From: an uncultured Spirochaetales bacterium
GTDB lineage: Bacteria > UBP6 > UBA1177
Direction of reading: 5' to 3'
Assembly: GCA_964630905.1 (NCBI GenBank)
Contig: CAZVWR010000004.1
Location: 6,775-70,774 of the forward strand
Length of the DNA stretch: 64,000 nucleotides
This document shows, in pieces, positions 5,723 through 60,997 of the stretch; position 1 is the first letter of the stretch; every line of letters starts with the position of its first letter. The position numbers were made by a program, and so were the translations under genes. Under the pieces are notes generated by a model. It was not told where the DNA came from. It made no database searches and was given only the letters and a program-made list of their open reading frames with translations.

Positions 5723-7401
<1,679 letters not shown>

Positions 7402-7455: not shown

Positions 7456-7481
7456 CCAAACAGTTTTTTTCAGGAGGAAAA

Positions 7482-9927: not shown

Positions 9928-11173
9928 TCTTCTTGCTGTATTTATGGAAATGTCCCCTTATCTGCTCTTGGGATTTTTTATTGCGGGGATACTTAACGAG
10001 CTTTTCAAAGGGACAAAGCTGAAAAAATTTATCGGAGGGAGCAATTTTCTTAGTATTGTGAATGCTTCCATTCTCGGTGTTCCGCTTCCTCTCTGTTCTT
10101 GCGGAGTTATACCTACCGGTGTTTCTCTCCACAAAAGCGGAGCGTCAAAGGGTTCTGCGGTTTCTTTTATGATATCAACTCCGCAGACAGGTGTTGATTC
10201 CATACTTGTCACATGGTCGCTGCTCGGTTTGCCGTTTGCACTTTTGAGACCTGTCATTGCATTCATAACCGGTGTTGCAGGCGGAGTTATGACCAGCGTG
10301 CTTGAAAAAAATGCCACTGAGTCTAACAGGATCAGCACTGATGAAATGAAAGAAGAGGACAAAAGGTCTTTTTTACAGAAATTTTATTCCGCAATGAAAT
10401 ATGCATTTGTCGATTTTCTTGATGACATTTCTCTGTGGCTTTTTGTCGGGCTTATAACTGCGGCACTTATTTCTGTAATAATTCCGGAAGGTTTTTTCAC
10501 AACTTATGTGGGGAACAACTATCTGAGCATGCTTATTGTCCTTATTGCTTCGGTTCCTCTTTATGTCTGTGCAACAAGTTCTGTTCCGATAGCAGTTGCT
10601 CTTATGCTGAAAGGGCTGAATCCGGGGGCGGCACTTGTTTTTCTGATGGCAGGCCCTGCAACAAATGCCGCAACTGTTCTTGTGATAGGAAAAACGCTCG
10701 GGAGAAAAGCTCTTTTCAGTTATCTTTTTTCAATTATAGCAGGAGCTTTAGTGTTTGGCGCCATAATTGATAATTTCCTGCCGGCAGAGTGGTTTAAGCC
10801 TCAATTGATGCAATCTCACTCTCATCATCATGGAGGAATAAATTATTTTTATCTTATATCGTCAGTTATTCTTGCCATATTGCTGCTTATGAGTTTTGTC
10901 AGATATTTGAAAAGAAGAAAAGAATCTTCTCATTGTCATGACAAAGAGTGCTGTTGTGAAAATGCAAATGAAACTGAAACAACTGTAATTCAGGTCGAGG
11001 GAATGACATGCAGTCACTGTGCGGCAAATGTAAAAGCAGGGATATCTGAAGTTCAAGGTGTTAAGAATGTGGAAGTAGACCATCATACAGGAAGAGTTGA
11101 AATAACAGGCACTGATATTGACATGGATGAAATAAAAAAAGCAGTTGAATCGAGGGGTTATAAAGTCGTATGA
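9908..11173 (+). CDS. Predicted permease (DUF318/ArsP-like, SO_0444-type) fused to a C-terminal heavy-metal-associated (HMA) domain.
   Basis: N-terminal permease motifs include LPLCSCGVIPTGVSL. The His/Cys-rich linker is HSHHHGG...CHDKECCCEN. The HMA motif GMTCSHCAANV has the expected ferredoxin-like spacing. It overlaps znuB by 20 nt. Confidence 0.75.
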   Translation: MQNFLNSLLAVFMEMSPYLLLGFFIAGILNELFKGTKLKKFIGGSNFLSIVNASILGVPLPLCSCGVIPTGVSLHKSGASKGSAVSFMISTPQTGVDSILVTWSLLGLPFALLRPVIAFITGVAGGVMTSVLEKNATESNRISTDEMKEEDKRSFLQKFYSAMKYAFVDFLDDISLWLFVGLITAALISVIIPEGFFTTYVGNNYLSMLIVLIASVPLYVCATSSVPIAVALMLKGLNPGAALVFLMAGPATNAATVLVIGKTLGRKALFSYLFSIIAGALVFGAIIDNFLPAEWFKPQLMQSHSHHHGGINYFYLISSVILAILLLMSFVRYLKRRKESSHCHDKECCCENANETETTVIQVEGMTCSHCAANVKAGISEVQGVKNVEVDHHTGRVEITGTDIDMDEIKKAVESRGYKVV

Positions 11174-40614: not shown

Positions 40615-40760
40615 TGAATTTAAGGTTAGCATCAAGCTCAGTTTGAGTTCCTGTGGAAATCCGGTGCAAGTCCGGTGCTGTCCCGCAACTGTAAGGCGAT
40701 ATCGCTAAGCCAGACACACAAGCTCAGACGCAGTCAATTAGTACCCCGCGGAGGGAAAAA
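40615..40760 (+). promoter_or_regulatory. Cobalamin (B12) riboswitch leader of btuB.
   Basis: The conserved aptamer core is GGAAATCCGGTGCAAGTCCGGTGCTGTCCCGCAACTGTAAGG, followed by the B12-box-like GCTAAGCCAGACAC. The ribosome-binding site GGAGGG and the TTG start lie in the downstream expression platform. Confidence 0.8.
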
Positions 40761-42806
40761 TTGCAGATTGAAAGATTTGCCGTCTCACTTTTAACACTTT
40801 GTCTTTACATAGTTTTTACTGATATTCATGCAGCCGAAAACTCTGTTGTTGTCACAGGCTCAAAAAACGGACAAATTGATTCAGCAAGCGCATCTTCAAC
40901 TGTTACAGCAAAAGAAATCGAAGAAAAACAATCAGTTACGGCAGGAGATGCGGTGCGTGAAATGCCAGGGGTATATGTAAGCGGAGACGGCAGAACAGGT
41001 CAGGCGCAATACATTTTTGTAAGAGGTTTCAGGTCAAGTGATGTGTTAATTCTGCTTGACGGAGTTGAGATAAGAAATCCGTTAAGTCCTGACGGAGCGG
41101 CAGATATTTCATTAAGTCCTGATAATATTGCAAAAATTGAACTGTTAAAAGGCCCTCAACCTGTTCTTTTCGGTAGCGGAGCAATTGCCGGAGTTCTAAA
41201 TATCCATACTAAAAAAGGAAAAGGAGCACCTTCTTTTTCCACTTCGTTTTCAACAGGCGTTCTTGACATGAGCAATGAACGATATATTCCCGATACTTTT
41301 AATGCAAAGGTCTCTTCAAAAGGGGGCAATGGCACCGCTTTTTATAATACCGGAGCGACATTCTTTTTCACTGAAGGGATCTCGATGGCAGATTCATATT
41401 CAGGTGTCAAAGAAGGACTTTATGACAAAACACCCGAAAATGACAAAGTTATAAAAGGGAGCGGATACTTCAGGACAGGCGTCACAATAGACAGCAGTAA
41501 CGAGTGGGAAACGGTTTTGAGAGCTGTTAAAGGAAAAAGTGAAATAGATGACGGGCCGGGACTGGGTGCTGATGATGTGAACCGGTTCCTTGAATCGACT
41601 GAATTTGTGATAAAAAGCGGAATTAACTCGAATTTCTTTGGCGGGAAGTGGAATATGTCCACAAGTTTTTCACTTCTTTACAGTTCCTTAAATGACACAG
41701 ATCCCGCTGATCAAGGCAAAGTGACTGGCGATATGGAAAGTGTTTATGATGCTTTTTCAGGTGTTATAAACTGGGTAAACACAATAAATCCTGCAAGCTG
41801 GTATGAACTTATTTTAGGCAGTGAACTTAAAAAAGAGTGGGGGGAAGCCGATTACAGCGATTATTCAGCGGGAAGAAGAGTTGATCTGAGTTTTGTTCCT
41901 TCAACTGATCTATCTGCCGGAATTTATGCTTTCAATATTTTTAAGCCGGTAAAAAACCTTGAAATAAATGGCGGAATAAGACTCCAGAACAATTTTTATC
42001 AGGTGCAGCTCCTTGATAAAACTGATGATTCTCTGCTTCCTTCAGAAATGAAAAAAAGTGTTGAGCCGCTGTTTTCAGCCGGAATATCTTATGAAGCTCC
42101 AAGTGAAACGGTTTTCAAGACCCGTTTTGCAAGAGGGGTGAAAACTCCGACACTTTTTCAGCGATTCAGCCGTTTTGCAGATTCGTATAATGAACTTAAG
42201 CCCGAAACGGCGTGGGGTTTTGACGGAATAGTTCAGCAGTATTTTTTCAAACGGAATATTCTTGTTGCAGCTGGATATTTCTACGAACTCAAATCCAACC
42301 ACATAAGTCTTGATAAAAGCGGAAAGTTTTCAAATAGATATCTCATTGAAAATCACGGAATTGAAATCTCTCTTTTAACAAAACCGGTGTACGGATTAAG
42401 TTTGAAAGCCGCCTACACCTGGATATTCAAAATGAAGGAATATAAAGTTGTTGAATATTTTGGTGAAAAATACAGAGAGGAAACAGATCTGCTAAGAAGG
42501 CCTGCTCACACATTTGATGCAGTTTTAAACTATAACTTGATGAAAAAATTAAATATTTCGCTTTGCATAAATTATGTCGGCAAAAGACTGGATGAAGTTT
42601 ACAACTATCCGAAAACCCCTTATGTTGTGACTGCTGACCAGTTTGTCATTTTAAATCTCGCCATCTCTTATAAAATCAATAAGTATCTGACAATATTTGG
42701 AAAAATAGAGAATATGCTTGATAATGACGACTACGCATATTCAGTGGAATACGGTACTTCAGGGATCACTCCGTGGCTTGGACTGAAATTTGATACAGGT
42801 GAATGA
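40761..42806 (+). CDS. btuB: TonB-dependent outer-membrane receptor, BtuB-like.
   Basis: Plug-domain motifs (TonB-box region VVVTG, ...FVRGFRSSDVLILLDGVEI...), a 22-strand barrel, and a riboswitch upstream. It has a TTG start 5 nt after GGAGGG. Confidence 0.85.
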   Translation: MQIERFAVSLLTLCLYIVFTDIHAAENSVVVTGSKNGQIDSASASSTVTAKEIEEKQSVTAGDAVREMPGVYVSGDGRTGQAQYIFVRGFRSSDVLILLDGVEIRNPLSPDGAADISLSPDNIAKIELLKGPQPVLFGSGAIAGVLNIHTKKGKGAPSFSTSFSTGVLDMSNERYIPDTFNAKVSSKGGNGTAFYNTGATFFFTEGISMADSYSGVKEGLYDKTPENDKVIKGSGYFRTGVTIDSSNEWETVLRAVKGKSEIDDGPGLGADDVNRFLESTEFVIKSGINSNFFGGKWNMSTSFSLLYSSLNDTDPADQGKVTGDMESVYDAFSGVINWVNTINPASWYELILGSELKKEWGEADYSDYSAGRRVDLSFVPSTDLSAGIYAFNIFKPVKNLEINGGIRLQNNFYQVQLLDKTDDSLLPSEMKKSVEPLFSAGISYEAPSETVFKTRFARGVKTPTLFQRFSRFADSYNELKPETAWGFDGIVQQYFFKRNILVAAGYFYELKSNHISLDKSGKFSNRYLIENHGIEISLLTKPVYGLSLKAAYTWIFKMKEYKVVEYFGEKYREETDLLRRPAHTFDAVLNYNLMKKLNISLCINYVGKRLDEVYNYPKTPYVVTADQFVILNLAISYKINKYLTIFGKIENMLDNDDYAYSVEYGTSGITPWLGLKFDTGE

Positions 42807-43993
42807 TGAAAAAATTGATAGTTTTAATGATCACACTCTTTTCAATCGGTTGCGGCGATGGAAATTTTCCAGATCTGCCTGATGGAGAAAATGTGACCGC
42901 AGATGCGCCGGTGCTGGATCTTGATATTGTTGAAAATTACGATGAGTCAATTGAAAGCGATCTGATAGTTGCGACTGTCGGTGGATATGATGTCCCTTTC
43001 AGCGGCAAGGTGTTTCTGTCTGAAAACGAGGAAATTCAAGACCTTGTCAGAATTAGAAAAGATGAAAAGATTGGAAGTTCAACAGGTTCTGACATTACTG
43101 TTTCAACATGGGACGGAGGCTTTTTTGTTATTGGCAGGCACGATTCATCAACTGCCTATTTCTTTGATGAAAAATCGACAAAAGACGGTTTTGATTTCAG
43201 TGCGGTTGATCTTGGAAAAGGGGATTATATCAATCTTCAGGAAGGGGTTTATAACCATTTTAAAGATGAGTTCATTTTCAGTGCATTAAACAGTAACTAT
43301 CTGATAATATTAAAAAATAACGCGGTGTCAAAATTGCAGATAAGTGAAAACGCAAACGCGAGTCCTGCAAAAATGAGGATCATCAAAAGCAAACTGTTCG
43401 TGGCAATGCAGAATCTGAATGAGAGCTGGCAGCCGGGATCAGGAGAGATGGCAGTGATCGATATGGAGACATATTCTGTAAAAAGATTTGGTCTGACTTC
43501 TAAAAATCCTGTCGGAAAAATCGAATATAATCAATCGGTTGACGCGGGTCATTTTTATATTGCCTGTTCTGGAAGCTGGCAGAAACGGGACGGTGCGGTT
43601 TTGCGGATAGATATTGAAACATTTGAATCGACGGAGATACTTAAAGAATCTGATAACGGAGGTATCCTTGACGGTGATTTTGTGGATCTGACAATTGCCG
43701 ATAATGGTGATTTTTATATAGTTTTCTCAAATAATTCAGATAGATGGATAAACAGACTTCTTAAATACGACACAAAAAAAGGAGTTATTTCTCAAATTGA
43801 TTCAGGAGTCAACGCGTTTGCGGCAAATCCGGTTGATTACAGTCCCGTCACAAAGAAAATATATTATTTTGCAGACTTCGGGCCTGACACATTTTTAAGA
43901 TCAATGAACACCGATTCAGGAGAATTTGAAGAGATAAAGCTTGATGAAGGACCTGCGTTTATCAAAGTGTGGATTAGAAATATCAATAATTAA
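42803..43993 (+). CDS. Surface lipoprotein, hypothetical (possible B12-capturing partner of BtuB).
   Basis: Lipobox LFSIGC. It shows repeated beta-rich DG/F segments and is coupled to btuB by an ATGA overlap. Confidence 0.5.
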
Positions 43994-44004
43994 GGGAGGT
44001 TGTC

Positions 44005-45051
44005 ATGAAAAAAAGTATGCTGTTGATCATGTTATTAGTTTTTATTACAGGATGTGATAACGAAACTTCTGAAAAAAACGACAATGACACAGAACCTGTA
44101 CACGAACTTATCGGAAGATATTCCGACAGCTTCGGCGGTCCCCATATAATTTCAAACACTGTCTGGGATCAGGGCGGAATGATGGGGAGGTTCAATATTG
44201 AGCTTTTTGACAGCGAAAATGATGTGATCATTGCTCAAAATGACAAGAACAATGAATTCAGTGCTGAAAAATGGAGCCGTTTCGATTACCTTATCGATTC
44301 GTCAAAAATATATTTCTGCCAGATAGTTTATGATTTGGACACGATGCAGGAAGCAATTGATGCAACAGGGGCCGATAGAGGTGATCTTGATGGCGGCTGT
44401 AACGGTTTTGGATGGACTGAACTGGCTGAAATTGCTGAAGAATCAATTGATAAAGATGACGCACTGATAGTTGCATGGGCAAATGGTCATGAGTCATATA
44501 TTCCAGGAGAAGATCTGATCGAAGATTGGAAAACACCTGACAAAGCAATTGGTAAAGCTGAAGGAACTTCGACTGATATAGTTTCACTTGGAAACGGCGG
44601 AAGTATAGTTCTGACTTTTGAAAAACCGGTTACAGATGGCCAAGGAGCTGATTTTGCAGTTTTTGAGAACAGTCTAAGTGACACTTTTCTTGAGCTTGCG
44701 TTTGTAGAAGTAAGCAGTGACGGAACGAATTTCTTAAGATTTGACACATATTATCTCGGTGTTGACCCCGTTGATGCTTTCGGAAATCATGACTCGTCAC
44801 TCATCTGGGGATTTGCAGGAAAATTCAAACAGGGACTCGGCACTAAATTTGATCTGAATGATCTTGCTGAAAAATCAGAAGTGGTTGATAAAACTGTAGA
44901 TCTGAGCAATATTACACACATAAGAATCGTTGATGTAATTGGTAACGGAAGCGAAATCGACACACTCGGAAATCCGGTCTATGACCCTTATCCCACAACG
45001 GAAAGTGCCGGCTTTGACCTCGATGCGGTCGGCGTGATGAATTTGAAATAA
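44005..45051 (+). CDS. Lipoprotein, hypothetical.
   Basis: Lipobox VFITGC; the C-terminal beta-sandwich-like region GADFAVFEN...[11 protein letters not shown]. Confidence 0.5.
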
Positions 45052-45123
45052 TTGCAATTTTTCGAGAATAAACTATATCATAAAGGTGTTTGTCGGGATG
45101 TTTTTTTCGATGGAGTTTTAAAT

Positions 45124-46275
45124 ATGAAAAGATTTCTGCTTGTTGTATTTTTTGCACTGTTTCTTCCGTTTTTTGTCAGTGCTTCAGATGAAGGAAAGGA
45201 TGTTTTTTACTTTTTCTATTCATACAAATGTCCTCACTGTATTGAAGCGCATCCTTTCATTGATAAGCTCAAAACAGAATATCCGGACATAGTTTTCAAA
45301 GATCTTGAAGTTATGAAAATTCCTGAAAACAGAGAGCTTTTTAAAAAAATGATTGGAGAACTCGGAATTCAGGGCGGTGGTGTTCCGACATTTATTTTCA
45401 ATGGAAAATTTGTTGTAGGTTTCCAGGCAGGACATCACGACAGACTTATAAGACAGATGATTGATCTTAACATGTCAGATCATAAAAAGGAGAGTTGTCA
45501 GAGTGCAGACTGCAAAGAGTGCAAGGAAAATATGATAGATGTTCCGATACTTGGAAAGATCGATGCTAAAATGGTCTCTTTGCCGAGTTTTACTTTCATA
45601 ATCGGACTTCTTGACGGCATAAATCCATGTGCAATGTGGGTTCTTATGTTCCTTCTCACCCTTCTTGTCAACGCAAAAAGCAGAAAAAAACTGATAATGG
45701 TCGGAACAGTTTTCGTTGTTTCATCCGCGGTGGTATATTTTCTGTTCATGACCGCATGGCTCAACATTTTCACTTTCATGGGGGTAAGTCAGTATATTAC
45801 GATAGCACTCGGAATTCTTGCACTTTTAATGGGACTTATCAACATAAAGGAGTTTTTCTTCTTTAAAAAAGGGATCAGCCTGATGATACCTGAAAAAGCA
45901 AAACCCAAGCTTTTTGAGAAAATGAGAAAGATAATGAATAACAGCAGTTTTGCAGTTTCTCTTTTCGGTACTATCGCACTTGCATTTTTTGTAAATCTCA
46001 TTGAACTTGGATGCACGATCGGACTTCCGGCAATTTATACGAGAGTCCTTTCAGTTCAGCAGATAAGCACATCGGTAAAATATTTCTACATGGCTCTCTA
46101 CAATGCTTATTATGTCATTCCTCTTGCAGTTATTGTCGCTCTTTTCGTTTTCACGATGGGCAAATACAGATTTGAGGAAAAACACGCAAAAGTGCTTAAA
46201 CTGGTAAGCGGAATATTGATGATAACACTTGGAGCGATACTTGTTTTCAAACCCGATCTTCTTGTTTTCGCGTAG
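45124..46275 (+). CDS. Thioredoxin-fold domain fused to a DsbD/CcdA-type transmembrane disulfide transporter.
   Basis: Signal peptide, then YKCPHC (thioredoxin CxxC), then a membrane domain with GINPCAMWV and ELGCTIG, consistent with CcdA/DsbD conserved cysteines. The start is at MKRFLL. Confidence 0.7.
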   Translation: MKRFLLVVFFALFLPFFVSASDEGKDVFYFFYSYKCPHCIEAHPFIDKLKTEYPDIVFKDLEVMKIPENRELFKKMIGELGIQGGGVPTFIFNGKFVVGFQAGHHDRLIRQMIDLNMSDHKKESCQSADCKECKENMIDVPILGKIDAKMVSLPSFTFIIGLLDGINPCAMWVLMFLLTLLVNAKSRKKLIMVGTVFVVSSAVVYFLFMTAWLNIFTFMGVSQYITIALGILALLMGLINIKEFFFFKKGISLMIPEKAKPKLFEKMRKIMNNSSFAVSLFGTIALAFFVNLIELGCTIGLPAIYTRVLSVQQISTSVKYFYMALYNAYYVIPLAVIVALFVFTMGKYRFEEKHAKVLKLVSGILMITLGAILVFKPDLLVFA

Positions 46276-46278
46276 GAA

Positions 46279-47100
46279 CTAAGAAAGTTTTTTAAATATC
46301 TTTTCACCGATCTTTTCAAATTCGATTCCGGCTGGTGTTTTCCCGTAAACATTTACAAAAAATCTTCCTTTATCTCCGCATTCGCTTACTAAAGGTTCGA
46401 TCGGGATCTCGCCTAATATTTCTGTGTTATGATCCTCTGCCATTTTTGCAATGCCGCCCTGTTTGAATATGTAGCTTTTTTCACCGCATTTTGGGCAGAC
46501 GAAGTGGCTCATGTTGACGACTATTCCAAGGTTTTTAAATCCAAGTCCGCTTGCAAATGAAAGTGATTTTCTGACATCGCTGATTGAAACTTCCTGAGGA
46601 GTTGTGACTATCAATGCATTTGCTTTATCTTTAAGGAACTGTGCAACAGTAAGCGGCTCATCACCTGTTCCGGGAGGGGAGTCAATGATAAGATAATCGA
46701 GTTCACCCCACTCAACATCGCAGAAAAACTGTTTTATAGCACTAACCTTCATCGGTCCTCTCCAGATGACGGGCGAGTCAATGGATTCAAGTGCAAGCCC
46801 GATGCTGACAGCGTGAAAAGTGTCTGAAATTCTTACCGGTTTTATTTTTCCCGATTCATCTGATCCCAGTTTTTTTCCTTCAATTCCAAGAAGTTTCGGA
46901 ATGCTCGGACCGTGAAAATCCACATCCATAATGCCGACATTTTTTCCCTGCATTGCAAAATAATATGCAAGATTCACAGCGACACTGCTTTTGCCGACAC
47001 CACCCTTTCCGCTCATGACAACGATAATGTTTCTGATCTTTGAAACAGTTTCATTAAACCGTTTCTCCTCTTCCTCATTCGTAAAAAGTGAAAATGCCAT
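46279..47100 (-). CDS. Mrp/NBP35 (ApbC) Fe-S cluster carrier ATPase.
   Basis: SGKGGVGKSS, CPKCGEK. Confidence 0.85.
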   Translation of the reverse strand: MAFSLFTNEEEEKRFNETVSKIRNIIVVMSGKGGVGKSSVAVNLAYYFAMQGKNVGIMDVDFHGPSIPKLLGIEGKKLGSDESGKIKPVRISDTFHAVSIGLALESIDSPVIWRGPMKVSAIKQFFCDVEWGELDYLIIDSPPGTGDEPLTVAQFLKDKANALIVTTPQEVSISDVRKSLSFASGLGFKNLGIVVNMSHFVCPKCGEKSYIFKQGGIAKMAEDHNTEILGEIPIEPLVSECGDKGRFFVNVYGKTPAGIEFEKIGEKIFKKLS

Positions 47101-47249
47101 ATCTTAAAACCTCCAAGTAAAAAGAAAAAATCCACACAGAGACAATAGTCCCCAAAATCTTTTTTTCAAGAGGATAACAGATTCATTGACATAAAATCAA
47201 TAAAAATATAAAGTCCGGAGTTTTAAATTCTGTTTGATAGTTTGGAGAG

Positions 47250-47921
47250 ATGATGGATGTTATTTTAAAAAACATTTCAAAGGGTTACAAAAACGCAACT
47301 GGTGAGAGTTTTGCCGTTATTAAAGATCTTAACCTTGAGCTTAAAAGCGGAGCGGTGCTTCGTCTTAAAGGGGCAAGCGGAAGTGGAAAGACCACACTTA
47401 TGAACATTGTTTCAGGTCTTATTCTTCCTGACAGCGGAACGGTCAAGGCGGGTGATTTTGAAATAACCGCAATGAGCGAAACCGGAAGAGACAGGTTCAG
47501 AGCTGAAAATACCGGTTATATTTTCCAGACATTCAATCTTCTAAGCCCTTTTTCTGTCATTGAAAATGTTTATGCACCTCTCGCTTTTGCAGGGGAACTC
47601 CCTGAAAAATTTGAAGAAAAAGCGATTGCTGTTTTGAATGAGGTGGGACTTGCCGGTCTTGAAAAAAGGAAGATCTACCATCTTTCGGTGGGGCAGAGGC
47701 AGAGGGTTTGTGTTGCAAGGGTTCTTTTTTCAAACCCCCGGATCATTCTTGCCGATGAACCGACCGCATCTTTGGACACAGAAAGTGCAAAAACGGTTTA
47801 CAGATCGATCGAAAAGTGCAGAAATAACGGCTCGACAATAATTTTCGCCTCACATGACAGGATATTTGATGACTTTAACAGCGACATGGTATTCGATCTT
47901 GAAACAGGGAGGGTGTCATGA
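47250..47921 (+). CDS. ABC transporter ATPase, MacB/LolD-like.
   Basis: GASGSGKTT, LSVGQRQRVCVAR, ILADEPTASLD. Confidence 0.85.
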   Translation: MMDVILKNISKGYKNATGESFAVIKDLNLELKSGAVLRLKGASGSGKTTLMNIVSGLILPDSGTVKAGDFEITAMSETGRDRFRAENTGYIFQTFNLLSPFSVIENVYAPLAFAGELPEKFEEKAIAVLNEVGLAGLEKRKIYHLSVGQRQRVCVARVLFSNPRIILADEPTASLDTESAKTVYRSIEKCRNNGSTIIFASHDRIFDDFNSDMVFDLETGRVS

Positions 47922-49207
47922 GGGCGGCATTTATTTTAAAAGCAGTTATGCACAATATGAAACACAGATGCTCTGCTGTGGTTATCTCAATAATTTCAAT
48001 AGCTTGTGCATTCGCTTTTTTAAGTGCTATCGGGAATGTGACTTTCGGACTGGCTACAACGGCCGTAAACAGTTCTCTGAGTTTTCCGCTTGTTATCGGA
48101 CCTGAGGGATCAAGCGACACCCAGCTTGTAATGTCAACGGTTTTTAATATCGATAAACCGAAAGGAACACTTGAATATTCAGTTTTTGAAGAATTGATCA
48201 AAGATAAAAGGGTCGCATCAGCATTTCCTGTTGCAAGGGCTGACAGTTACATGGGGATTCCCATAACAGGGGTGACCTCTGATTTTATTAAGGAAAAAAG
48301 CAACGGATTCATAAAGTTGAAAGAAGGTTTTGTTTCTGACGATATTTTTCCTGAATCTGACCTTCACAGAGCTGTTATCGGTTTTAAAATAGCCGAAAGA
48401 TACGGACTCACAATTGACGATAAGTTTGTTGGCAGTCACGGACATGTGGGTGATGAAAATGCTCACGGTCATGATGATTTTCAATATTTCGTTGCAGGAA
48501 TAATGAATCCTGTTAACGGACCGGAAGATTTTTCTATTTATGTCAATTTAAGAGCAGTCTGGAAAATTCATGAGAAGGGAGATGAACACGACGATCACAA
48601 TGCAGATAATGAACACCATGAACACCACGAAGGGTGTGATCACGGCACTGATGGCGAAGCCCATGAAACGCTTTCTGCGATTCTTGTGAAAACTGTAAAT
48701 CCGGTCGCTACGAGCGAACTTGAAAGGGAATATTCATCAAGAAGCGGAACAAGTGCAACGGATGTGGCAAAAACAGTCAGAAGGGTTGTCCAGTATATGA
48801 ACAAAGCCGAAACAGCGGCAGGATTTTTCAGTTACGGAACATTATTGATCGTTCTTGCAATGGTTTTTGTAACAATGGTCATGGCAATAAATGAAAGAAA
48901 GAAAGAGATGGCCATGATGAGAACTTTGGGAATAGGCAAACTCCCGATTTCATTGACTGTAATGATCGAATCAATGATAATTACAGTTGCCGGTGTTCTT
49001 GCCGGTGTTGTTCTCGGTCATTTTGTTTTATGGTATTTAAAACCACTTATAGATTTCAATCTCGGAATAAGTCTCGAACCGTTTTTTGTCACAAAAGTTG
49101 AAATACAGGGAATATTGATTACTCTGATGTCCGGTCAGATCATTTCAATTATTGCAATGCTCCGGATTTATAACATGAACCTTGTGGAAGAGGTAGCCAG
49201 AGACTGA
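47918..49207 (+). CDS. FtsX/MacB-type ABC permease with a histidine-rich periplasmic insert.
   Basis: TM1, a large periplasmic domain and 3 C-terminal transmembrane segments. The inserts are HGHVGDENAHGHDD and DEHDDHNADNEHHEHHEGCDHGTDGEAHE. Confidence 0.8.
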   Translation: MRAAFILKAVMHNMKHRCSAVVISIISIACAFAFLSAIGNVTFGLATTAVNSSLSFPLVIGPEGSSDTQLVMSTVFNIDKPKGTLEYSVFEELIKDKRVASAFPVARADSYMGIPITGVTSDFIKEKSNGFIKLKEGFVSDDIFPESDLHRAVIGFKIAERYGLTIDDKFVGSHGHVGDENAHGHDDFQYFVAGIMNPVNGPEDFSIYVNLRAVWKIHEKGDEHDDHNADNEHHEHHEGCDHGTDGEAHETLSAILVKTVNPVATSELEREYSSRSGTSATDVAKTVRRVVQYMNKAETAAGFFSYGTLLIVLAMVFVTMVMAINERKKEMAMMRTLGIGKLPISLTVMIESMIITVAGVLAGVVLGHFVLWYLKPLIDFNLGISLEPFFVTKVEIQGILITLMSGQIISIIAMLRIYNMNLVEEVARD

Positions 49208-49208
49208 T

Positions 49209-50042
49209 ATGTCAAGGAAAAAGAACATTTTTATTGCTTTAGCTGTGATATTATCTGCATTGATAGTCACAGCTATCTATGAAATGAGGCCCGAACGAGA
49301 TCTTTCTGAAAAACTTCTTCCGAAAGAATATCAGGGTAGAGATGCCATCACCGGGCTTGGTGATATTTCTTCAAGCAGACCGGTTGAGAAAGTTGAAGGT
49401 GGTGAGAAGGTTGAGAATGTTGAGAAAGTTGAGAACGTTGAGAAAGTTGAAAATGTTGAGAAGGTTGAGGGAAAACTTCCTGCAGCCGAAAAGTTCAAAA
49501 AAGCGAACGAATCAATTTCCGACAGCTTTAAGAAGCACGGCACGGATGTGGTTCTTAAGCCAGTGGACAAACTTGTGGAAAAAGAAAAATATCACGGGAA
49601 ATATACTCTGAACGAACCCGATTTTTCAAATCTGCATCCCCTTAATTATCAGGGACTTAAAAAGGTTTATACATATTTCAGGTTGAAAGAATCAATGCCG
49701 GAAGTGGTAGTGAACAAACTGAATGGAGCTGCTGTTGTAATGACAGGTGCTGTAATGCCTGTCGATAAAATTCCCGAAGACGGCAATTTTACGGCTTTCT
49801 GGCTTTCAAACCCGTCAATAGTTCTTGCCGGATGTGTTTTTTGCAACCCGCCCACACTTGCTGATATAGTTTATGTTTATAAAGACAGCGGCGAGAAACC
49901 CTTCAAATTTGAAAGGGAAAAGCTTTTTAAGCAGGTAGTTCTGGTAAGAGTTACCGGACGGTTATTTTTCGGCCCTGAAACAATAAAAGACCAGATATTT
50001 CTTTTCAGCATTCTTGCAACCGATGTGGAGATACTGAATTGA
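49209..50042 (+). CDS. Membrane-anchored DUF3299-like protein with a (VEKVEN)n repeat linker.
   Basis: N-terminal transmembrane segment, the repeat, and C-terminal AGCVFCNPPTLADIVYV resembling the DUF3299 motif GACIHVPPPPPNQIVHV. Confidence 0.5.
   Translation: MSRKKNIFIALAVILSALIVTAIYEMRPERDLSEKLLPKEYQGRDAITGLGDISSSRPVEKVEGGEKVENVEKVENVEKVENVEKVEGKLPAAEKFKKANESISDSFKKHGTDVVLKPVDKLVEKEKYHGKYTLNEPDFSNLHPLNYQGLKKVYTYFRLKESMPEVVVNKLNGAAVVMTGAVMPVDKIPEDGNFTAFWLSNPSIVLAGCVFCNPPTLADIVYVYKDSGEKPFKFEREKLFKQVVLVRVTGRLFFGPETIKDQIFLFSILATDVEILN
49391..49471 (+). repeat. Coding tandem repeat, nine copies of 9 bp (gttgagaaN), encoding (V-E-K/N)n.
   Basis: gttgaaggt ggtgagaag gttgagaat gttgagaaa gttgagaac gttgagaaa gttgaaaat gttgagaag gttgaggga. 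Confidence 0.8.
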
Positions 50043-50210
50043 TAGGACTCCTGTGCAACTTATTGATATTAAAGAATAAAAAAGTTTGGAAGATGTCTTG
50101 CTAAATTGTGTGTGTGAGAAAAATGTTCATTTAAACATTTGACTTTTAGAGGTGTATTTACTATTTTGGCAGGCGCTTCAAGGAGAACGGTTTGAGAAAC
50201 TTATTCATAA

Positions 50211-51479
50211 ATGGAGGAGACATTGAAAGTATTTAAGATTTACTTTCTCTCTCTGCTGCTTATTTTCGCTTTCCCGGTTTTAGCTCAGGAGAATGCCGGT
50301 GAAGGTGAGACAGAGCCTGAAAAATCAGTTTCGGAAGATACTGAGGATGATGTAGAGGAAGAAGAGGGTGAAGCAGAGAGCAAGGAAGAAAAACCTGCCG
50401 AAGCGAAACCTGAAGAGGTAAAGCCTGAAGAGGTAAAGCCTGCCGAAGTTAAGCCGGAACCCGTTGCGGAAACACCTGTGGCAACTCCGGAAGTAAGAGA
50501 AGAACCCAAGGTGGCAGTTAAAATCGAAGGCGAACCTGAAGGTGAAAAAGGTAAAGATGATGGTAAAGAAAAAGAGAACAAAAAGTTCAACATCAGCATC
50601 ATCAACGGTTTTTCACATGGGTTCGCAAAGGAAAGAAAATCTTTTTCCTATAATCTTACACTGGGAGCATCATATATGTTTCCGTGGCAGATAGCTTTTT
50701 CTGCGGATGTAGGTCTTAACGCTCTTTACAGATACGATCTTGATAATTCTATCCCGACAGAAGGCGGGTATGCAACTGATGAAAAGATCGATTCAGGGGT
50801 ATTTGACGGCACTCCGTTGAATCTGGGTCTTTCAAAAGCATTTCCTGTTGTATGGAATATAGGTGGAAATCTTGGCATCAGCGCAGGTCTTCCATTTACA
50901 TCAACTGAGCTCTGGGAGCAGTATAAGATTTACACTATGCTTACAGCAAGTCTCGGTTTTGCAAGACCCTTTAAAGTCGGAAAAGAAACTTCTGTTGTTC
51001 CGGCATTTAACTTTTCTTACACAAAAACATTTGCTAAATATGACTATGATACAGACCCTTATCAGAACACGATATCAAGCCCGATCAACGAACACACTTT
51101 TGTTCTGGGTTTGAATCTTTCTCTTGCTTACAAGGGGCTTAAGCTTGCCGTGAACGGTGGATATGTTATCTCGAGAAATTATTCAGTAACTTCAATGCCT
51201 GAAGATTGGTACGGTGACGGCGATCATCGTAAACAAGGAACTGTTTATCAGGATTGGAGTTATATTTTCAGTTTCGGAGCATCAATTTCATATTCTATTA
51301 AGGAATGGAGTTTCGGACTTGGCGTAAGAACCAATGCTCCGGAATATGACAGCGGCAACTATGTGGGATTTCCGACGGTTGCAGGTGATCCAGCGGTTGA
51401 CAACGGATCGGCGAACTACCCGTTCAAACCGAAATATACAAGAGTTTTTGCTAATATTGGCTATTCATACAGTTTCTAA
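50211..51479 (+). CDS. Outer-membrane beta-barrel protein with an acidic Glu/Pro/Lys-rich N-terminal region.
   Basis: Signal peptide, (KPEEV)-type low complexity, alternating amphipathic strands, and a terminal ...IGYSYSF. The start may be the TTG at 50223 after GGAGG. Confidence 0.55.
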   Translation: MEETLKVFKIYFLSLLLIFAFPVLAQENAGEGETEPEKSVSEDTEDDVEEEEGEAESKEEKPAEAKPEEVKPEEVKPAEVKPEPVAETPVATPEVREEPKVAVKIEGEPEGEKGKDDGKEKENKKFNISIINGFSHGFAKERKSFSYNLTLGASYMFPWQIAFSADVGLNALYRYDLDNSIPTEGGYATDEKIDSGVFDGTPLNLGLSKAFPVVWNIGGNLGISAGLPFTSTELWEQYKIYTMLTASLGFARPFKVGKETSVVPAFNFSYTKTFAKYDYDTDPYQNTISSPINEHTFVLGLNLSLAYKGLKLAVNGGYVISRNYSVTSMPEDWYGDGDHRKQGTVYQDWSYIFSFGASISYSIKEWSFGLGVRTNAPEYDSGNYVGFPTVAGDPAVDNGSANYPFKPKYTRVFANIGYSYSF

Positions 51480-51495
51480 TTAAGGAGGTTTTATT

Positions 51496-54400
51496 ATGAA
51501 CTGGATTAAAAGAGCATTTTCACTGCTTGTAGCTCTTGTTGTTGTAATGATAGCGGTATCATGTACAACTGAAAGAGATGCAGTGGACAAATCACCTGAA
51601 CTTTCTCTGGACAAGAGGTTGTTCGAAGGAGAATTTTTTCTCCGTCAGACCGTTTTTGATCTCCCGTATATTGCTGATTATGCGTTTATCGGTGAGTCGA
51701 ATGACGGTAAAATAATTAAGTGGAAAATTACCGAAAACTGGCTTGTTGCTTACAGTATCTGGGACAAATTGTCTGTTGTTGATACTAACGAAACAGTTGA
51801 TGTAAACGAAACACCCGTCTATGCGTATCCTATCGCTATGCATTATGACATTGTTCCAAGTGAGAATCCGACAACAGGAGAAGCGCTCCCTGTTCTTTCT
51901 ATTAACATGGACAGACCGTGGAATGAAAGGCGCTATTTTCAGCTTGCAACAAATACAAGAAGCGGTGTAAACAACTATGAACTTAAGTACATGGCGATGA
52001 CACAGGAATGGGACGGTCCTTTTTACAGAGCCGGTCTTACTACTGGAACAGATTGGGAATTCTATTCTCATGACGGTACTTTTATTGCACCGAAGAAATA
52101 TCGTGAATATACAGCTATTGCTGATGACAAAGAAAGATTCAATAAAGAAGTTGAATGGTTCCAGTTCTACTCTACTGAATATTTTCAGCCTGTTAATAAC
52201 TGGGACAGCATTTACACAATGGAAGATGTTGAAGAATTTATTGGAAACGAACCGGCAACAATTAAGTATAGATTCGTTTTCACAAAAGTGAACAGAGATG
52301 TTGTTGGAAAAAGAGACTATGATCTCGCAACAAAAAGTTATTTGTGGAAAAATGGTTCCAAAGATAACGGTTTCAGACCTCTTGAATTCAGAGATGAGCT
52401 TTTCCGTGAATATGGTTTTTTCACAAATACTTTCAGAGGTTACGACAACTATCACGGATACAAGATGGACAATGTCCATATTTTTGCAAATTACTGGAAT
52501 ATGGCTTGGGCCAACGAGAAGAAAGAGTGGAATTTCAAGTGTGGAGCAGGTGAAGTCTATGCTGATTGTCTTAAAAAGGTTAAATATCAGCAGAAAATAG
52601 TTTTTGTTTCATCACCGAAAACGCCACTTAGAATGATCCCTATAAACTGTGCAATTACAAAGGATTATAACCACGCAATGCTTGCTTCAAGGTATGCGGC
52701 AATGAATCCGGGAAGTGATACCCGTCAGTTTGAAAAATGGTATGTAGATAATTATGATAAGGACTTCTTTACTGAAATTAATGGTCAAAAAGTCCGTGAT
52801 CAGTACTGGTATCTTGGAAATCTGCCGGAAGATTGGGAAGAAAAATGTTTTGTTCCTGATGAATATGCTTGGATTCAGAGATGGGATGGTTCATTCATTG
52901 ATGAAAATGCGGATGGTACCGTTGATTCAGATGTGGAAAAAATCCTTGAAGAATATAAAAATGATTTGGTTGTAATGGTAAAAAATCATGTTGAAGCGTA
53001 TATTCCTGCAAGAGACGGAAAATCACTTTACGGTTTTGAAAACTATTATAATTTGTCAAACACAAGTCGTGAAAATGCGGCAAAAATCTGTGTAGAACCT
53101 GAAGAAGTTGCGAAATATAGAGAAGATGTTGCTATGCAGTTCTCAACATGTATCACTAATGATGAAGGAATGACTTCACTTTATGTTGATGAGGCTGGAA
53201 GAGCAGAGTGGAGAGGAGATCGCTGGAGTTGTAAAGTATATGCTGAAGACGATGCCTGCCCGGAAGGGACAGTAGAAGCAAAAGCGGCATGTGTTCTTAA
53301 CGAAGAAAGATCATGTGAAGTTGAAGATGGAGTTCCGGCACTCCGTTATAAATATGACAACGGTAATCCGAAAGCCGCTCTTATTAACTGGGTTGAAAAA
53401 CCCACAGAATACGGAATCCTCGGTGTTGCACAGTGGAATGTTAATCCGGAAACCGGAATGTCTATGGGTGCTGGTGCAAATATTGCAGGATCTGTTCTTG
53501 CATGGGCAACAGAAAGAGCCGTGGAAATGGCAAGAATGGTTATTTCAAAGGATGATCCTGCGGCTTGGGATTTCGAAGATCTTCTTAATCCTGATTATGC
53601 TCAATATCCTGAGGTTGCATGGAACAATAAACCTTCAACAATTGAGCCGAAATCTCTTACAGGAAGCAAAAGACTCGAGAATTCGTTTAGTATGATTAAC
53701 AAACCTTCCGCTAAATTAAACGCAAAGCTTCCTGTTGCATTCCAGCAGAATGTTTTTGATGAAATACAGGAAAAATTTGATTCAAAAACGAAGATGCAAG
53801 ACAGATTCGATTTTGCAGATATAAAAGATTCTAAATGGGAAAATGATATGGTTCCTTATTCCATTAAAAAATCACTTTTCCCATGGGCTGATCCCGCAAT
53901 GAATCCTACATATTCTGACGCTGAGAAAGAGATAATGCAGCCTTGGTTCGGCGGCCCAGAAATGATGAATGCGGCACTTTTAAGATTTACCGATGCAAGA
54001 GCTCGCGACTTTGATTATGATGAAAGCTTTATGGATGGAACAATAGTCAACTTCATAAAGGCAAAACAGCTTGAGCTTCGTGGAAAGATTACAGACTGGA
54101 ACAAGCCAAGTGGGCAGGATAAGTACGAACAGGCACTTATTTATTCAATTTATGATGAACTTGAAAAATTGATGTATAAAGGTGTTGCTCAGCATGAAAT
54201 GGGTCATGTAGTTGGTCTTAGACACAATTTTGCAGGTTCCACAGATAAGAATAATTATATAGATGGATTTTTCAGAACTGAAAACTATCCGGCACTTGAA
54301 CAGGAAATTGAAGAGCATGTAAGAACAAGGGTAGCTGAGTCTGTTAATTCAGATGATCTGAAAACTATTGGTGATGAAGTATGGAGAATAAAAAGAAGAT

Positions 54401-56997
54401 TTGAATCCGGAATGGGTTATTACATGTATAATTCTGTAATGGATTATCAGAGAGAAGCTTATATTCATGCAAACGGCCTTGGAAAATATGATGCTGCTGC
54501 ACTTAAATTTGTTTACGGCCGTTCAATTGAACAGTATAAGGTTGCAGGGGATGCACAGTATGGCGAGGTAGTTTTTGACGGAGACGCAAATGATCCTAAT
54601 CCGGAACTTGCCAACAAGGAGAGAGATCCTAATTATGCCGATTTTGTAAAGGTAAACACTCCTTTCATCGATGAAAAGACAGGTAAACTTGCGAAGGTTG
54701 AAAAACCGAGAGAGCTTTTTGAGTATTATGATGAAACAGGCAAAAAAGTAATGAGAATCGGTCCGAAATATAAGAGAAGTATGCTCGGAAGAATTCTTAC
54801 AAAAGATGATGTGCCTTTGAATAGTGGCGGAACTCCGCTTTTTGAGCATGACTGTGACGGATCAGATCCTGATCAGTATTACTGTGAACCCGATACGACA
54901 TATCTTGTAAATGACGGAAGTCACTATAAGTATGTGTTTGTTTCAGATGAAAAATCAAGAGAAGAACCGGCAGGTAATACTTTTGATGGCGGATACTCAG
55001 GTGCAGATATAATCCGTCAAATGACAGATATGGATCATATGTTCTATTATCTCAGATATTTCCAGAGAGGAAACCCGAGATTCAGAGATTTCCGTGGCAG
55101 AAACTCGATGAACATGATACTCGGATCACTTCTTAGACAGTATGTGTTTGTACACTTCCTGCTTGATTATAATTTCCACATTTATGGAAAGTGGTTTAGT
55201 TCGGTTCCTCTGTTTAACGACACACCTGAAACACCCAGAGGTTGTATTTCTACAGCTCTTGCAGATGATCCGAGTTACGGGCAGTATGTTTACACAATTC
55301 CTCTTGATGAAACAACATTCCTGCCGGTTGAAAATCATATGTGTGAAGACCTTTCGATGGCCCTTGCAGGAAACGAGTACTGGATTGATAAGTTCGATAA
55401 TGTCAGATCTGTTACTCCTTTTGGTGCCGGCGACCATGTTATTGCAGGCATGAAGGGTATTCAGTATCTTCTTTTTGACAGCATGTACAGACCTAATAAA
55501 GGAAAATATGTTCGTCAGCTTGTTAAAACGGCACCTCACTTTGAGCGTTTCGGGTATGATGACTGTAATCAGGAAGAGGATTGTCAGTTAACTGGAAAAA
55601 CCGGTAAATATTTCTGTAATCTTGCGACTCTTCCGGAAAATGCGCAGGCAGACCACTGCGGTTTCAATAAATGTTGTCTCAAGATTGAGATCTATGAAAA
55701 AGAGAATAATGAGAGATCAAATTATGAAGTCAGGAACGATGTTCTTGAATTTGATCAGGATCAGATGTATGTGAGTATGGATAACTATATCCCAGGAATT
55801 GAAGACGAAACAGAAATATTCGGATTTGATTCCAACATGATTGATGTGCCTGCTTCAATAGGAAGATATCACAGAGACCGTTTTGATATTCAGGACAACC
55901 CCGGAATTTACTATGACAAAGTTATAAGGAGAGGATACGCTCCTGAAAAAATGGTTACTCTGTTCACTCTTTCAAATTCAGGATGGCTTGATGGAAAATA
56001 CTCAAGAGAAAGCAGAGCTAACGGTCTTTCCAATATGTTCCCGGGTCTTGAAAATGTTATATTCAATGTCCTTTCTGATATTGCTACAGAAGAATCTGTA
56101 ATGAGTTTCACCCCTTACTGTATTGATACTTATGTCGGTGGAAAAGTTACCAGAGTTAATCTGCCGGTAAATCTTCTTACAAATTTCGGTGCTACTCCCG
56201 AATTCTGGACCGGTTCACAAGAAGAAGGCATGTATGATCCTGCAAGAAATATTTGTTCAAAGGTTGATAAAAATGATCCATCCCGTTATGTTCCTGTTCA
56301 CGCAGGATGGGTCTATTTTGACAAAATGTGGCCGAATTACTGGGCTATGGGAAATCTGGCAAACATCTCTGCTGACACATCAGTTCTCAGAAGATGGACA
56401 AGCAATTTTATCCCGAGACACGAAAGATCTCTCTATGCCGAAGTTGATGTAAATGAAGAGGAATTCCTCAATAAAGATGAGAATGGCTATTACAGGGCAA
56501 GAATCCCTGCAAGCGCAATGGACAATGCTGATGCATATGCTTACAGAGAATGGGGTAAATGCAGAGAAGCGATTCTGGAAGTCAATAAGAATGCTGATGT
56601 TTCAGGATGTATAACAAAAGCTGTATGGCCGGTTTGGAAGCTTAAGGAATTTGTTCTTGCTAACAATCCGGCAATTGCCGCTATTGAAAATCCGGAAGAA
56701 CAGGAAGCAGCAGTTGCAGCTGAAGTTGAAAGAATGCAGAATGATGATGAAGACCTGAGATTTGATAGTGTTGAAGAGTTTAAACTGTTCCTTACACAGA
56801 AATATGCAAGATACTCTCCATCTTTTAGAATTGTTGTAAATGCAAAACTTCTTAAAGAGAAAGAGTTGATTGATGCATCTTCAGGTTCAAGAGAGCCTTA
56901 CAGCCGCCTTGAAATAATGGAGACAACCCTTGATCAGCTTAACAGCTTTGCTGCTGATCAATTCGGTACAGCTGCTTTCTATGTACAGCGCTATTGA
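51496..56997 (+). CDS. 1833 aa lipoprotein of the metzincin zinc metalloprotease superfamily.
   Basis: Lipobox MIAVSC, the HEMGHVVGLRHNF (HExxHxxGxxH) motif and a downstream Met-turn candidate NSVMDYQ. Confidence 0.75.
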   Translation: MNWIKRAFSLLVALVVVMIAVSCTTERDAVDKSPELSLDKRLFEGEFFLRQTVFDLPYIADYAFIGESNDGKIIKWKITENWLVAYSIWDKLSVVDTNETVDVNETPVYAYPIAMHYDIVPSENPTTGEALPVLSINMDRPWNERRYFQLATNTRSGVNNYELKYMAMTQEWDGPFYRAGLTTGTDWEFYSHDGTFIAPKKYREYTAIADDKERFNKEVEWFQFYSTEYFQPVNNWDSIYTMEDVEEFIGNEPATIKYRFVFTKVNRDVVGKRDYDLATKSYLWKNGSKDNGFRPLEFRDELFREYGFFTNTFRGYDNYHGYKMDNVHIFANYWNMAWANEKKEWNFKCGAGEVYADCLKKVKYQQKIVFVSSPKTPLRMIPINCAITKDYNHAMLASRYAAMNPGSDTRQFEKWYVDNYDKDFFTEINGQKVRDQYWYLGNLPEDWEEKCFVPDEYAWIQRWDGSFIDENADGTVDSDVEKILEEYKNDLVVMVKNHVEAYIPARDGKSLYGFENYYNLSNTSRENAAKICVEPEEVAKYREDVAMQFSTCITNDEGMTSLYVDEAGRAEWRGDRWSCKVYAEDDACPEGTVEAKAACVLNEERSCEVEDGVPALRYKYDNGNPKAALINWVEKPTEYGILGVAQWNVNPETGMSMGAGANIAGSVLAWATERAVEMARMVISKDDPAAWDFEDLLNPDYAQYPEVAWNNKPSTIEPKSLTGSKRLENSFSMINKPSAKLNAKLPVAFQQNVFDEIQEKFDSKTKMQDRFDFADIKDSKWENDMVPYSIKKSLFPWADPAMNPTYSDAEKEIMQPWFGGPEMMNAALLRFTDARARDFDYDESFMDGTIVNFIKAKQLELRGKITDWNKPSGQDKYEQALIYSIYDELEKLMYKGVAQHEMGHVVGLRHNFAGSTDKNNYIDGFFRTENYPALEQEIEEHVRTRVAESVNSDDLKTIGDEVWRIKRRFESGMGYYMYNSVMDYQREAYIHANGLGKYDAAALKFVYGRSIEQYKVAGDAQYGEVVFDGDANDPNPELANKERDPNYADFVKVNTPFIDEKTGKLAKVEKPRELFEYYDETGKKVMRIGPKYKRSMLGRILTKDDVPLNSGGTPLFEHDCDGSDPDQYYCEPDTTYLVNDGSHYKYVFVSDEKSREEPAGNTFDGGYSGADIIRQMTDMDHMFYYLRYFQRGNPRFRDFRGRNSMNMILGSLLRQYVFVHFLLDYNFHIYGKWFSSVPLFNDTPETPRGCISTALADDPSYGQYVYTIPLDETTFLPVENHMCEDLSMALAGNEYWIDKFDNVRSVTPFGAGDHVIAGMKGIQYLLFDSMYRPNKGKYVRQLVKTAPHFERFGYDDCNQEEDCQLTGKTGKYFCNLATLPENAQADHCGFNKCCLKIEIYEKENNERSNYEVRNDVLEFDQDQMYVSMDNYIPGIEDETEIFGFDSNMIDVPASIGRYHRDRFDIQDNPGIYYDKVIRRGYAPEKMVTLFTLSNSGWLDGKYSRESRANGLSNMFPGLENVIFNVLSDIATEESVMSFTPYCIDTYVGGKVTRVNLPVNLLTNFGATPEFWTGSQEEGMYDPARNICSKVDKNDPSRYVPVHAGWVYFDKMWPNYWAMGNLANISADTSVLRRWTSNFIPRHERSLYAEVDVNEEEFLNKDENGYYRARIPASAMDNADAYAYREWGKCREAILEVNKNADVSGCITKAVWPVWKLKEFVLANNPAIAAIENPEEQEAAVAAEVERMQNDDEDLRFDSVEEFKLFLTQKYARYSPSFRIVVNAKLLKEKELIDASSGSREPYSRLEIMETTLDQLNSFAADQFGTAAFYVQRY

Positions 56998-57024
56998 TAA
57001 TTTCTAAAGAATTGATTTTTCAAA

Positions 57025-57047
57025 GGGGGCTTCGGCCCCCTTTTTTT
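57025..57047 (+). terminator. Rho-independent terminator GGGGGC-TTCG-GCCCCC followed by T7.
   Basis: A perfect GC stem with a tetraloop and a T tract, 28 nt after the metzincin stop. Confidence 0.8.
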
Positions 57048-57129
57048 ATTAAAATGTTTTATTATTCTTCAACAAGTTAAACCACTTAAATAAAAATGAC
57101 ACTCGAGTACAGAAAACAGGGATAACTTC

Positions 57130-57158
57130 TTGACAGGATAGAGAAAATCTGGTACATT
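57130..57158 (+). promoter_or_regulatory. Candidate promoter for the FadL-like gene.
   Basis: TTGACA (57130-57135), a 17 nt spacer, then TACATT (57153-57158). Confidence 0.4.
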
Positions 57159-57195
57159 AATCTGCTGTGGATGTTGTTTATTAAAGGGAAAAGAC

Positions 57196-59946
<2,751 letters not shown>

Positions 59947-60745: not shown

Positions 60746-60772
60746 CCTAATGGTTAATTTTTGGAGTTTGTC

Positions 60773-60997
60773 ATGTTTCTTTCTGATCTTAAAAATGGTG
60801 ATAACGGTGTTGTGGAATCTATTGACTCCGGTCTTCGTCTTTTCAACCGTCTTGCATCAATGGGTATTTGTGAAGGAAAGGAGTTGAAGGTTGTTAAGAA
60901 CAGCGGGGACGGTCCGGTTGTTATCGATGTTGAAGGGAGCAGATACGCTATCGGCAGAGGAATGGCTGAAAAAATTATTATAAGAAAAAAAACATGA
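60773..60997 (+). CDS. feoA: Ferrous iron transport protein A.
   Basis: 74 aa SH3-like FeoA (GDNGVVESI...GICEGKELKVV). Confidence 0.8.
   Translation: MFLSDLKNGDNGVVESIDSGLRLFNRLASMGICEGKELKVVKNSGDGPVVIDVEGSRYAIGRGMAEKIIIRKKT

Follow-up and report, generated by a model that had tools for sequence, protein, structure and literature searches.

How a Zrg-type metal transport system could work when its histidine-rich accessory protein is missing is the question raised by three adjacent genes at 47250-50042 of the 64,000-nucleotide stretch analysed here (the window; contig CAZVWR010000004.1 of an uncultured Spirochaetales bacterium). The operon type to which they are related, PA4063-PA4066 or ZrgABCDE, has been described before (PMC8561739, PMC9820375, PMC9817125, PMC11481552); zinc is bound by its histidine-rich proteins ZrgA and PA4063 through loops rich in His, and the operons, which are under Zur control, are required when zinc is limiting (PMC9820375, PMC8561739, PMC9817125, PMC11481552). 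The working mode of these systems is unsettled, the Vibrio homologues being regarded as importers of zinc (PMC9820375) and that of P. aeruginosa as an exporter of a metallophore with its metal, pyochelin-cobalt (PMC11481552). A sequence-only reading of the window had suggested a zinc-starvation system of this kind, comprising the following genes:

47250..47921, + strand: ATP-binding cassette (ABC) ATPase, ZrgC/PA4064-like, 223 aa (PF00005, motifs)
47918..49207, + strand: permease with four transmembrane (TM) helices and FtsX/MacB fold, ZrgB/PA4065-like, 429 aa (FtsX domain, hydropathy, AlphaFold2 (AF2) model)
49209..50042, + strand: membrane-anchored DUF3299-type protein with an oligonucleotide/oligosaccharide-binding (OB) fold, ZrgE/PA4066-like, 277 aa

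The ATPase and permease open reading frames (ORFs) overlap by 4 nt (ATGA) and only 1 nt separates the permease from the DUF3299-type gene, and the triad is therefore a translationally coupled operon. On balance, and with moderate confidence, we read it as a divergent, ZrgA-less member of the Zrg/PA4064-PA4066 class of type VII (MacB-fold) ABC systems, in which a His-rich loop of the permease would serve as a metal antenna feeding a histidine site. The triad, carried by an uncultivated diderm lineage, is a variant form of a known but mechanistically unsettled Zrg-type system; what is new is a set of three invariant permease histidines and the ZrgA-less loop design.

Relationship to Zrg-type transporters

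Both transporter subunits have the hallmarks of type VII (MacB/FtsX-fold) ABC proteins. The ATPase matches PF00005 (ABC_tran, E 2e-31), and its translation contains the full set of catalytic motifs, namely Walker A (GASGSGKT), signature (LSVGQRQR), Walker B (ILADEP) and H-loop (ASHD); its best NCBIfam matches are to LolD, DevA, FtsE and MacB-type domains. Hydropathy places the four TM helices of the permease at approximately residues 20-46, 299-327, 342-375 and 394-418, behind a positively charged N-terminus, and from this arrangement the large domain between TM1 and TM2 (residues 47-298) is extracytoplasmic. A C-terminal FtsX domain is detected at E 5.5e-15 (55.9 bits against a cut-off of 25.5), and the AF2 model (pLDDT 78) has the MacB/LolC fold, with Foldseek matches to LolCDE (the best, E 9e-15), MacB, Spr0694-0695 and HrtBA (E 1e-11 to 1e-15). 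The likeness to MacB and LolCDE seen in the sequence-only reading is thus borne out by the model and its structural matches. Pfam MacB_PCD (PF12704) is not matched by the window permease at E up to 0.1; the domain is carried by some family members and by canonical Zrg permeases, and the fold of the window permease is still MacB-like.

This likeness of fold does not amount to membership of either of the familiar systems. Although LolCDE is the top Foldseek match of the permease and the ATPase resembles LolD (E 7e-45), there is one permease gene in the window and its partner is a DUF3299 protein, not LolA or LolB; assignment to LolCDE was rejected, NCBIfam scores being far under the cut-offs (34.4 bits against 362 for LolCE, 153 against 308 for LolD). 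Assignment to MacAB-TolC was likewise rejected, as no Pfam domains of HlyD/MacA adaptors or outer-membrane channels were found among the neighbouring genes in the window and 10 family loci. Unlike in MacAB-TolC, the ATPase is a polypeptide of its own, the triad has no MacA-type adaptor or TolC gene next to it, and the periplasmic domain is not sequence-alignable to solved MacB/Lol proteins. The permease family profile scores 19-37 bits against the solved YtrF, LolF, LolE and YbbP chains, in the TM region alone, and a sequence search of solved structures turned up no permease of the Zrg-type clade.

With Zrg-type permeases the homology is full-length. Our reference set was made up of 120 loci from species-representative genomes, each with the DUF3299 motif GACIHVPPPP in its canonical form, and the family profile of the window permease matches the adjacent permease in 72 of these at up to 166 bits (125-166 bits for canonical permeases). 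BLASTP with the single window permease aligns approximately 400-429 residues of the canonical proteins at 23-26% identity (E 1e-29 to 1e-34), and the ATPase shares approximately 40% identity with its counterparts in canonical Zrg loci. Pfam annotation of reference loci from Pseudomonas (L003) and Vibrio (L030 and L056) gives the order ZrgA, ATPase, FtsX/MacB_PCD permease, DUF3299. The resemblance to PA4063-PA4066 noted earlier therefore reflects real homology.

As in ZrgABCDE of V. cholerae and V. parahaemolyticus, the ATPase (ZrgC), the 4-TM MacB-like permease (ZrgB) and the DUF3299 protein (ZrgE) are encoded together, and the gene order ATPase, permease, DUF3299 is also that of P. aeruginosa PA4063-PA4066. 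The window differs from both in having no gene equivalent to ZrgA or PA4063, and from ZrgABCDE in the long His-rich loop of its permease, in a DUF3299 protein that is membrane-anchored, with a repeat linker and with CxxC instead of C-x-H, and in the failure to find a Zur box at the triad. In the triad operon we see no small gene with a single TM segment, ZrgD itself not having been searched for. There are no metallophore genes near the triad, so the pyochelin-cobalt export role proposed for the P. aeruginosa operon has no counterpart here.

The assignment of the third protein needs more care. It had been said to have a C-terminal segment resembling the DUF3299 (PF11736) motif; taken singly it is under the Pfam cut-off (E 0.004, 17.7 bits against 22, profile positions 39-102), unlike PA4066, but its relatives, profile, fold and cysteine motif converge on DUF3299. 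The same sub-threshold match is found in 15 of 24 diverse relatives, and family member P0248 lies above the cut-off. A profile of the C-terminal domain searched against 177,635 PDB sequences places PA4066 (PDB 4hsp) first (E 0.019), in an alignment that spans the G-x-V-x-P...F-L-L...G-C...P-P motif region. Against 1.84 billion representative proteins the same profile recovers a compact family of 48 clusters, past which the next matches (E 5e-6 to 5e-4) are four proteins above the DUF3299 cut-off (29-64 bits). In the AF2 model the C-terminal domain (pLDDT ~85-90) again has 4hsp as its top Foldseek match (E 7e-5). The protein contains the following features:

49218..49289, + strand: N-terminal TM anchor, residues 4-27 (hydropathy)
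49383..49468, + strand: 18-nt tandem repeat, 4.8 copies (Tandem Repeats Finder), encoding an (EKVENV)n disordered linker
49833..49844, + strand: invariant CVFC (CxxC) of the G-C-x-F-C-N-P-P-T motif in the OB domain (alignment)

The anchor is replaced by a lipobox (LSCS) in some relatives, and the linker (residues 63-116, pLDDT <50) differs among them in length and sequence. The motif stretch AGCVFCNPPTLADIVYV is present, with C209 and C212 invariant in 24/24 sequences; CVFC-N-P-P of the window family aligns with ACIHVPPPP (ACIH-V-P-P) of PA4066, and CxxC-x-PP is also found in P0257, P0258 and P0260, DUF3299 proteins that score above threshold. On all of this evidence, including the motif in these bridging proteins, we classify the third protein as a divergent CxxC-type DUF3299 protein.

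Invariant histidines and the His-rich loop of the permease

We aligned 59 canonical and 26 window-family permeases, and found H174, H185 and H218 (window numbering) to be invariant in all 85. D109, S110, G175 and D204 are likewise invariant; very few polar residues of the periplasmic domain, the three histidines included, show no variation. They are common to Vibrio loci (L030, L055, L056) and Pseudomonas loci such as L003, and these, together with the shared D109 and D204 and with the profile and BLASTP matches, identify the window protein as a ZrgB/PA4065-type permease. We found no mention of the equivalent residues in the papers on PA4065/ZrgB that were consulted. Two segments of the domain are of particular interest:

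48431..48478, + strand: hairpin motif GSHGHVGDENAHGHDD, residues 172-187, with invariant H174 and H185 (alignment)
48569..48667, + strand: H218 and hypervariable His/Asp/Glu-rich loop HEKGDEHDDHNADNEHHEHHEGCDHGTDGEAHE, residues 218-250 (alignment, AF2)

Both had been described in the sequence-only reading as histidine/acidic inserts of the periplasmic domain. Their location is upheld, since hydropathy puts both strings outside the cytoplasm, within residues 47-298, but only the second is a genuine lineage feature. The first aligns, with a one-residue gap, to the (A/S)HG...H(D/E)D hairpin of canonical permeases and is therefore a conserved hairpin, not an insert; strands 169-174 and 184-196 flank a low-confidence loop in the AF2 model, and the window lineage has gained extra histidines (H176, H183) and acidic residues there.

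The loop after H218 includes the densest 30-residue histidine window of all real ORFs in the 64 kb (8 His against a background of 1.75%, P ~4e-8 per position), and its residues 220-248 are predicted to be disordered (pLDDT <50). Within the window family it varies from 15 to 150 residues and from 0 to 59 His, its composition being kept while its sequence is not, and 25 of the 26 representatives have at least four His. In canonical permeases with a ZrgA neighbour the same loop has a median length of 28 residues and 0-1 His. The sole canonical permease with a His-rich loop is that of L102 (Xanthomonas sp. metagenome-assembled genome, 765-2081, - strand), where the insert AHGHRHDDAHADPGQDAH occupies the same loop position, was acquired independently, and is accompanied by no ZrgA within 5.9 kb upstream.

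The presence of a His-rich loop anticorrelates with that of a ZrgA gene. A hidden Markov model built from 51 ZrgA ORFs was searched against six-frame ORFs of the window and of seven more distant family loci (L122, L124-L129), without any ZrgA (PF10986) match at E up to 10; a ZrgA gene was found at 43 of the 59 canonical permease loci, most of the remaining loci being truncated. The sequence-only reading had proposed that the His-rich element is fused into the permease; fusion of a ZrgA domain was rejected, as there is no ZrgA homology in the permease or nearby. The part of that proposal that stands is that the His-rich element sits in the permease, where a disordered, hypervariable loop following an invariant histidine and anticorrelating with ZrgA fits functional replacement rather than gene fusion.

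It could be argued instead that the loop is incidental low-complexity sequence in a generic MacB/FtsX-type exporter of peptides or lipids. One homologue is annotated as an 'antimicrobial peptide transport system', the top NCBIfam match of the ATPase is a bacteriocin-export subfamily (under that model's cut-off), and one family member has no loop histidine at all. However, the three histidines are invariant, nearly all representatives keep their His enrichment although the loop sequence itself has turned over completely, the DUF3299 partner is never missing, and the full-length homology is specific to Zrg-type permeases and does not extend to solved peptide exporters. We consider a generic exporter very improbable.

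A separate observation concerns alignment positions 108-111, where canonical permeases have a near-invariant G-D-S-H string resembling block I of SGNH hydrolases; the corresponding residues of the window family are ADSY.

Proposed mechanism, direction of transport and regulation

Under the reading that we favour, an ATPase dimer would power a dimer of the 4-TM permease, whose large periplasmic domain would do the work, with the membrane-tethered DUF3299-type OB-fold protein as a putative obligate third partner. The disordered His/Asp/Glu-rich loop from residue 219 would collect divalent metal, most likely Zn2+, as an antenna of low affinity and high capacity, and would pass it to a site made of H174, H185 and H218, possibly with D109 and D204. 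ATP-driven mechanotransmission would then change the histidine site and move the metal on, and the permease loop would do in this lineage the job of ZrgA/PA4063. We infer metal binding, zinc as the metal, a role in acquisition, and the roles of the DUF3299-type protein and its CxxC motif.

The His-rich loops of ZrgA/PA4063 and of ZnuA are reported to capture metal at low affinity (PMC9820375, PMC8561739). ZnuA (PMC8561739) offers an analogy only: there too a disordered His/acidic loop lies beside a His-based site in a periplasmic ABC component, but the fold is unrelated, the loop in question here is within the permease, and the ZnuA of this same window has no such loop. The absence of the accessory His-rich protein, together with a His-rich loop beside invariant histidines, constitutes a natural experiment, which suggests that ZrgA acts by supplying a permease site. 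The main value of the locus lies in this natural ZrgA-less design and in a conserved candidate metal site on the permease, whose three histidines, shared without exception by Pseudomonas, Vibrio and this distant lineage, are obvious targets for mutagenesis.

The same features could also belong to a MacB-type exporter that expels metal or a metal chelate from the periplasm or inner membrane, for detoxification or metallophore recycling, with the three histidines and the loop serving in substrate recognition. In fold and ATPase type the triad is like exporters and extractors (MacB, LolCDE, HrtBA), the four TM helices per subunit form no obvious translocation channel, and PA4065 mutants accumulate intracellular pyochelin and cobalt (PMC11481552). 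On the other hand, loss of Zrg in V. cholerae impairs zinc-limited growth and zrgA is required (PMC9820375), no metallophore biosynthesis, membrane-fusion or TolC-like genes lie beside the triad in the loci examined, and a high-capacity His-rich antenna suits scavenging more than efflux. We regard export as unlikely here, though with real points in its favour.

Several points weigh against the antenna model that we prefer. We know of no MacB-fold transporter that moves substrates inward across the inner membrane, and the conserved His, Asp and Ser residues might have a part in catalysis or in contacts between proteins instead of binding metal. One family member (P0113) has a loop with no histidine. 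For the P. aeruginosa homologue an export function has been argued, and zinc binding was not evident for PA4066 (PMC11481552). The searches for regulatory elements likewise gave no support for zinc-starvation control. The Zur-type operator anticipated in 47100-47250 was not found: Zur/Fur/PerR-type boxes, with mismatches allowed, gave no match there, the consensus sequences used (gamma-proteobacterial, Bacillus, actinobacterial and generic 7-1-7) being drawn from other bacterial groups and possibly not those of the host lineage. A comparison of promoters among family loci revealed no conserved palindrome or operator, only a -35/-10 block being shared, and no metalloregulator or Fur-family gene is present among the window ORFs.

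The shared block includes a promoter-like element upstream of the ATPase gene:

47186..47214, + strand: TTGACA-17-TAAAGT, matching 10/12 consensus positions

A TTCATTGACwTAAAAT...TAArGT block is kept in L130 and L132, where a co-directional gene precedes the triad, and from this conservation the triad appears to have its own promoter. A 5+5 inverted repeat at 47185-47201 (ATTGACATAAAATCAAT) was considered as an operator and rejected, not being conserved in these two loci. No motif is common to 47101-47249 and the znu region or the other intergenic regions of the window, and Rfam gave no riboswitch upstream of the triad, its only match in the window being a cobalamin riboswitch at 40628-40741.

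At one other locus (L125, 7613-9828) a DUF3299-type gene without an ABC partner follows a gene for a DtxR-family metalloregulator and a radical-SAM gene in an apparent operon, with a FeoB-like gene adjacent; this is a hint of a metal connection.

Neighbouring genes

Downstream of the triad lies a pair of genes that accompanies it in most relatives:

50087..50167, + strand: promoter region of the downstream unit, with a sigma-54-type element TGGAAGATGTCTTGCT (GG-N10-GC, 50087-50102) and a sigma-70-like element TTGACT-17-TATTTT (50139-50167)
50211-51479, + strand: 422-aa protein with signal peptide, acidic linker and outer-membrane-protein-like C-terminus (no Pfam match)
51496-56997, + strand: 1833-aa lipoprotein with a lipobox and a HEMGHVVGLRH Met-zincin motif (DUF4953/Met-zincin, weak match at E 4e-5)

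The real start of the 422-aa gene is probably TTG 50223, after GGAGGAG. We saw no terminator in the 168-nt gap behind the triad, so that read-through is possible, but a single operon of triad and downstream genes was rejected because the gap contains conserved sigma-54-like and sigma-70-like promoters: the GG, TTGC and TTGAC of 50087-50167 are invariant across 8 loci whose proteins are down to 37% identical. The pair is therefore likely to be a separate transcription unit.

Genes for proteins of approximately 420-450 and 1720-1830 aa follow the triad in 8 of 10 family loci (L122, L124, L126, L127, L129, L130, L131 and L132). This raises the possibility that the triad serves its sigma-54-driven neighbours, either delivering zinc to the 1833-aa Met-zincin lipoprotein or sorting or releasing it, with the 422-aa protein as an envelope partner. 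The synteny persists at 37% identity and even with the DUF3299 gene shifted to the first position, the upstream flanks vary from locus to locus, a lipobox and HExxHxxGxxH are both found in the giant protein, and the permease's top structural match is to a lipoprotein extractor. However, the pair has its own conserved promoters, L128 has the triad without the pair and L125 the DUF3299-type gene alone, canonical Zrg loci have no such neighbours, and the LolCE score is far too low for a Lol-type extractor. Moreover, the 422-aa protein family is restricted to the same lineage, and the synteny may therefore reflect shared ancestry. We consider service to these neighbours improbable.

A wider conjecture, which we hold with little conviction, is that, by virtue of the three invariant histidines, the periplasmic domain of every Zrg-type permease is the actual metal site and that these pumps are ATP-driven periplasmic metal-transfer machines, not transmembrane importers, here loading zinc onto extracytoplasmic clients such as the Met-zincin lipoprotein. 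If true, this would amount to an energised metallation pathway for envelope enzymes, a possible link that is raised by the synteny with a giant zinc-protease lipoprotein.

The 1833-aa gene is followed by one for a FadL/Toluene_X-like protein (57196-58797), and the block 50211-58797 is syntenic with the triad in most relatives. On the other side, a MrpORP-like Fe-S carrier ATPase gene (46279-47100, - strand) is divergent from the triad. In L122, L123 and L130-L132 a same-strand ORP-like cluster (Nitro_FeMo-Co/NifX and ParA/CbiA-ferredoxin ATPases) lies directly 5' of the triad, and other upstream flanks vary, with a sigma-54 activator in L124 and different genes in L126, L127, L128 and L129.

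The sequence-only reading had also pointed to an enrichment of the window for metal and cofactor genes. The genes are indeed present, comprising ZnuA/C/B (7446-9927), ArsP+HMA (9908-11173), FeoA/B (60761-63027) and a TonB-dependent receptor (40761-42806) behind the cobalamin riboswitch (38.7 bits), but the enrichment is descriptive only. The distance from the triad to the other metal genes is 11-37 kb, and its flanks vary from one relative to another. Co-directional with the receptor, and extending to 46275, are genes for a 396-aa protein without a family, a LIC13355-like lipoprotein and a thioredoxin-fold membrane protein; the stretch 40628-46275 is possibly an operon for B12 uptake with accessory genes of an unusual kind. 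Collagen triple-helix repeat proteins are encoded at 5788-7401, directly 5' of znuA, and at 58807-59946, and a TAATcATTA core (5607-5621) lies upstream of the first of these.

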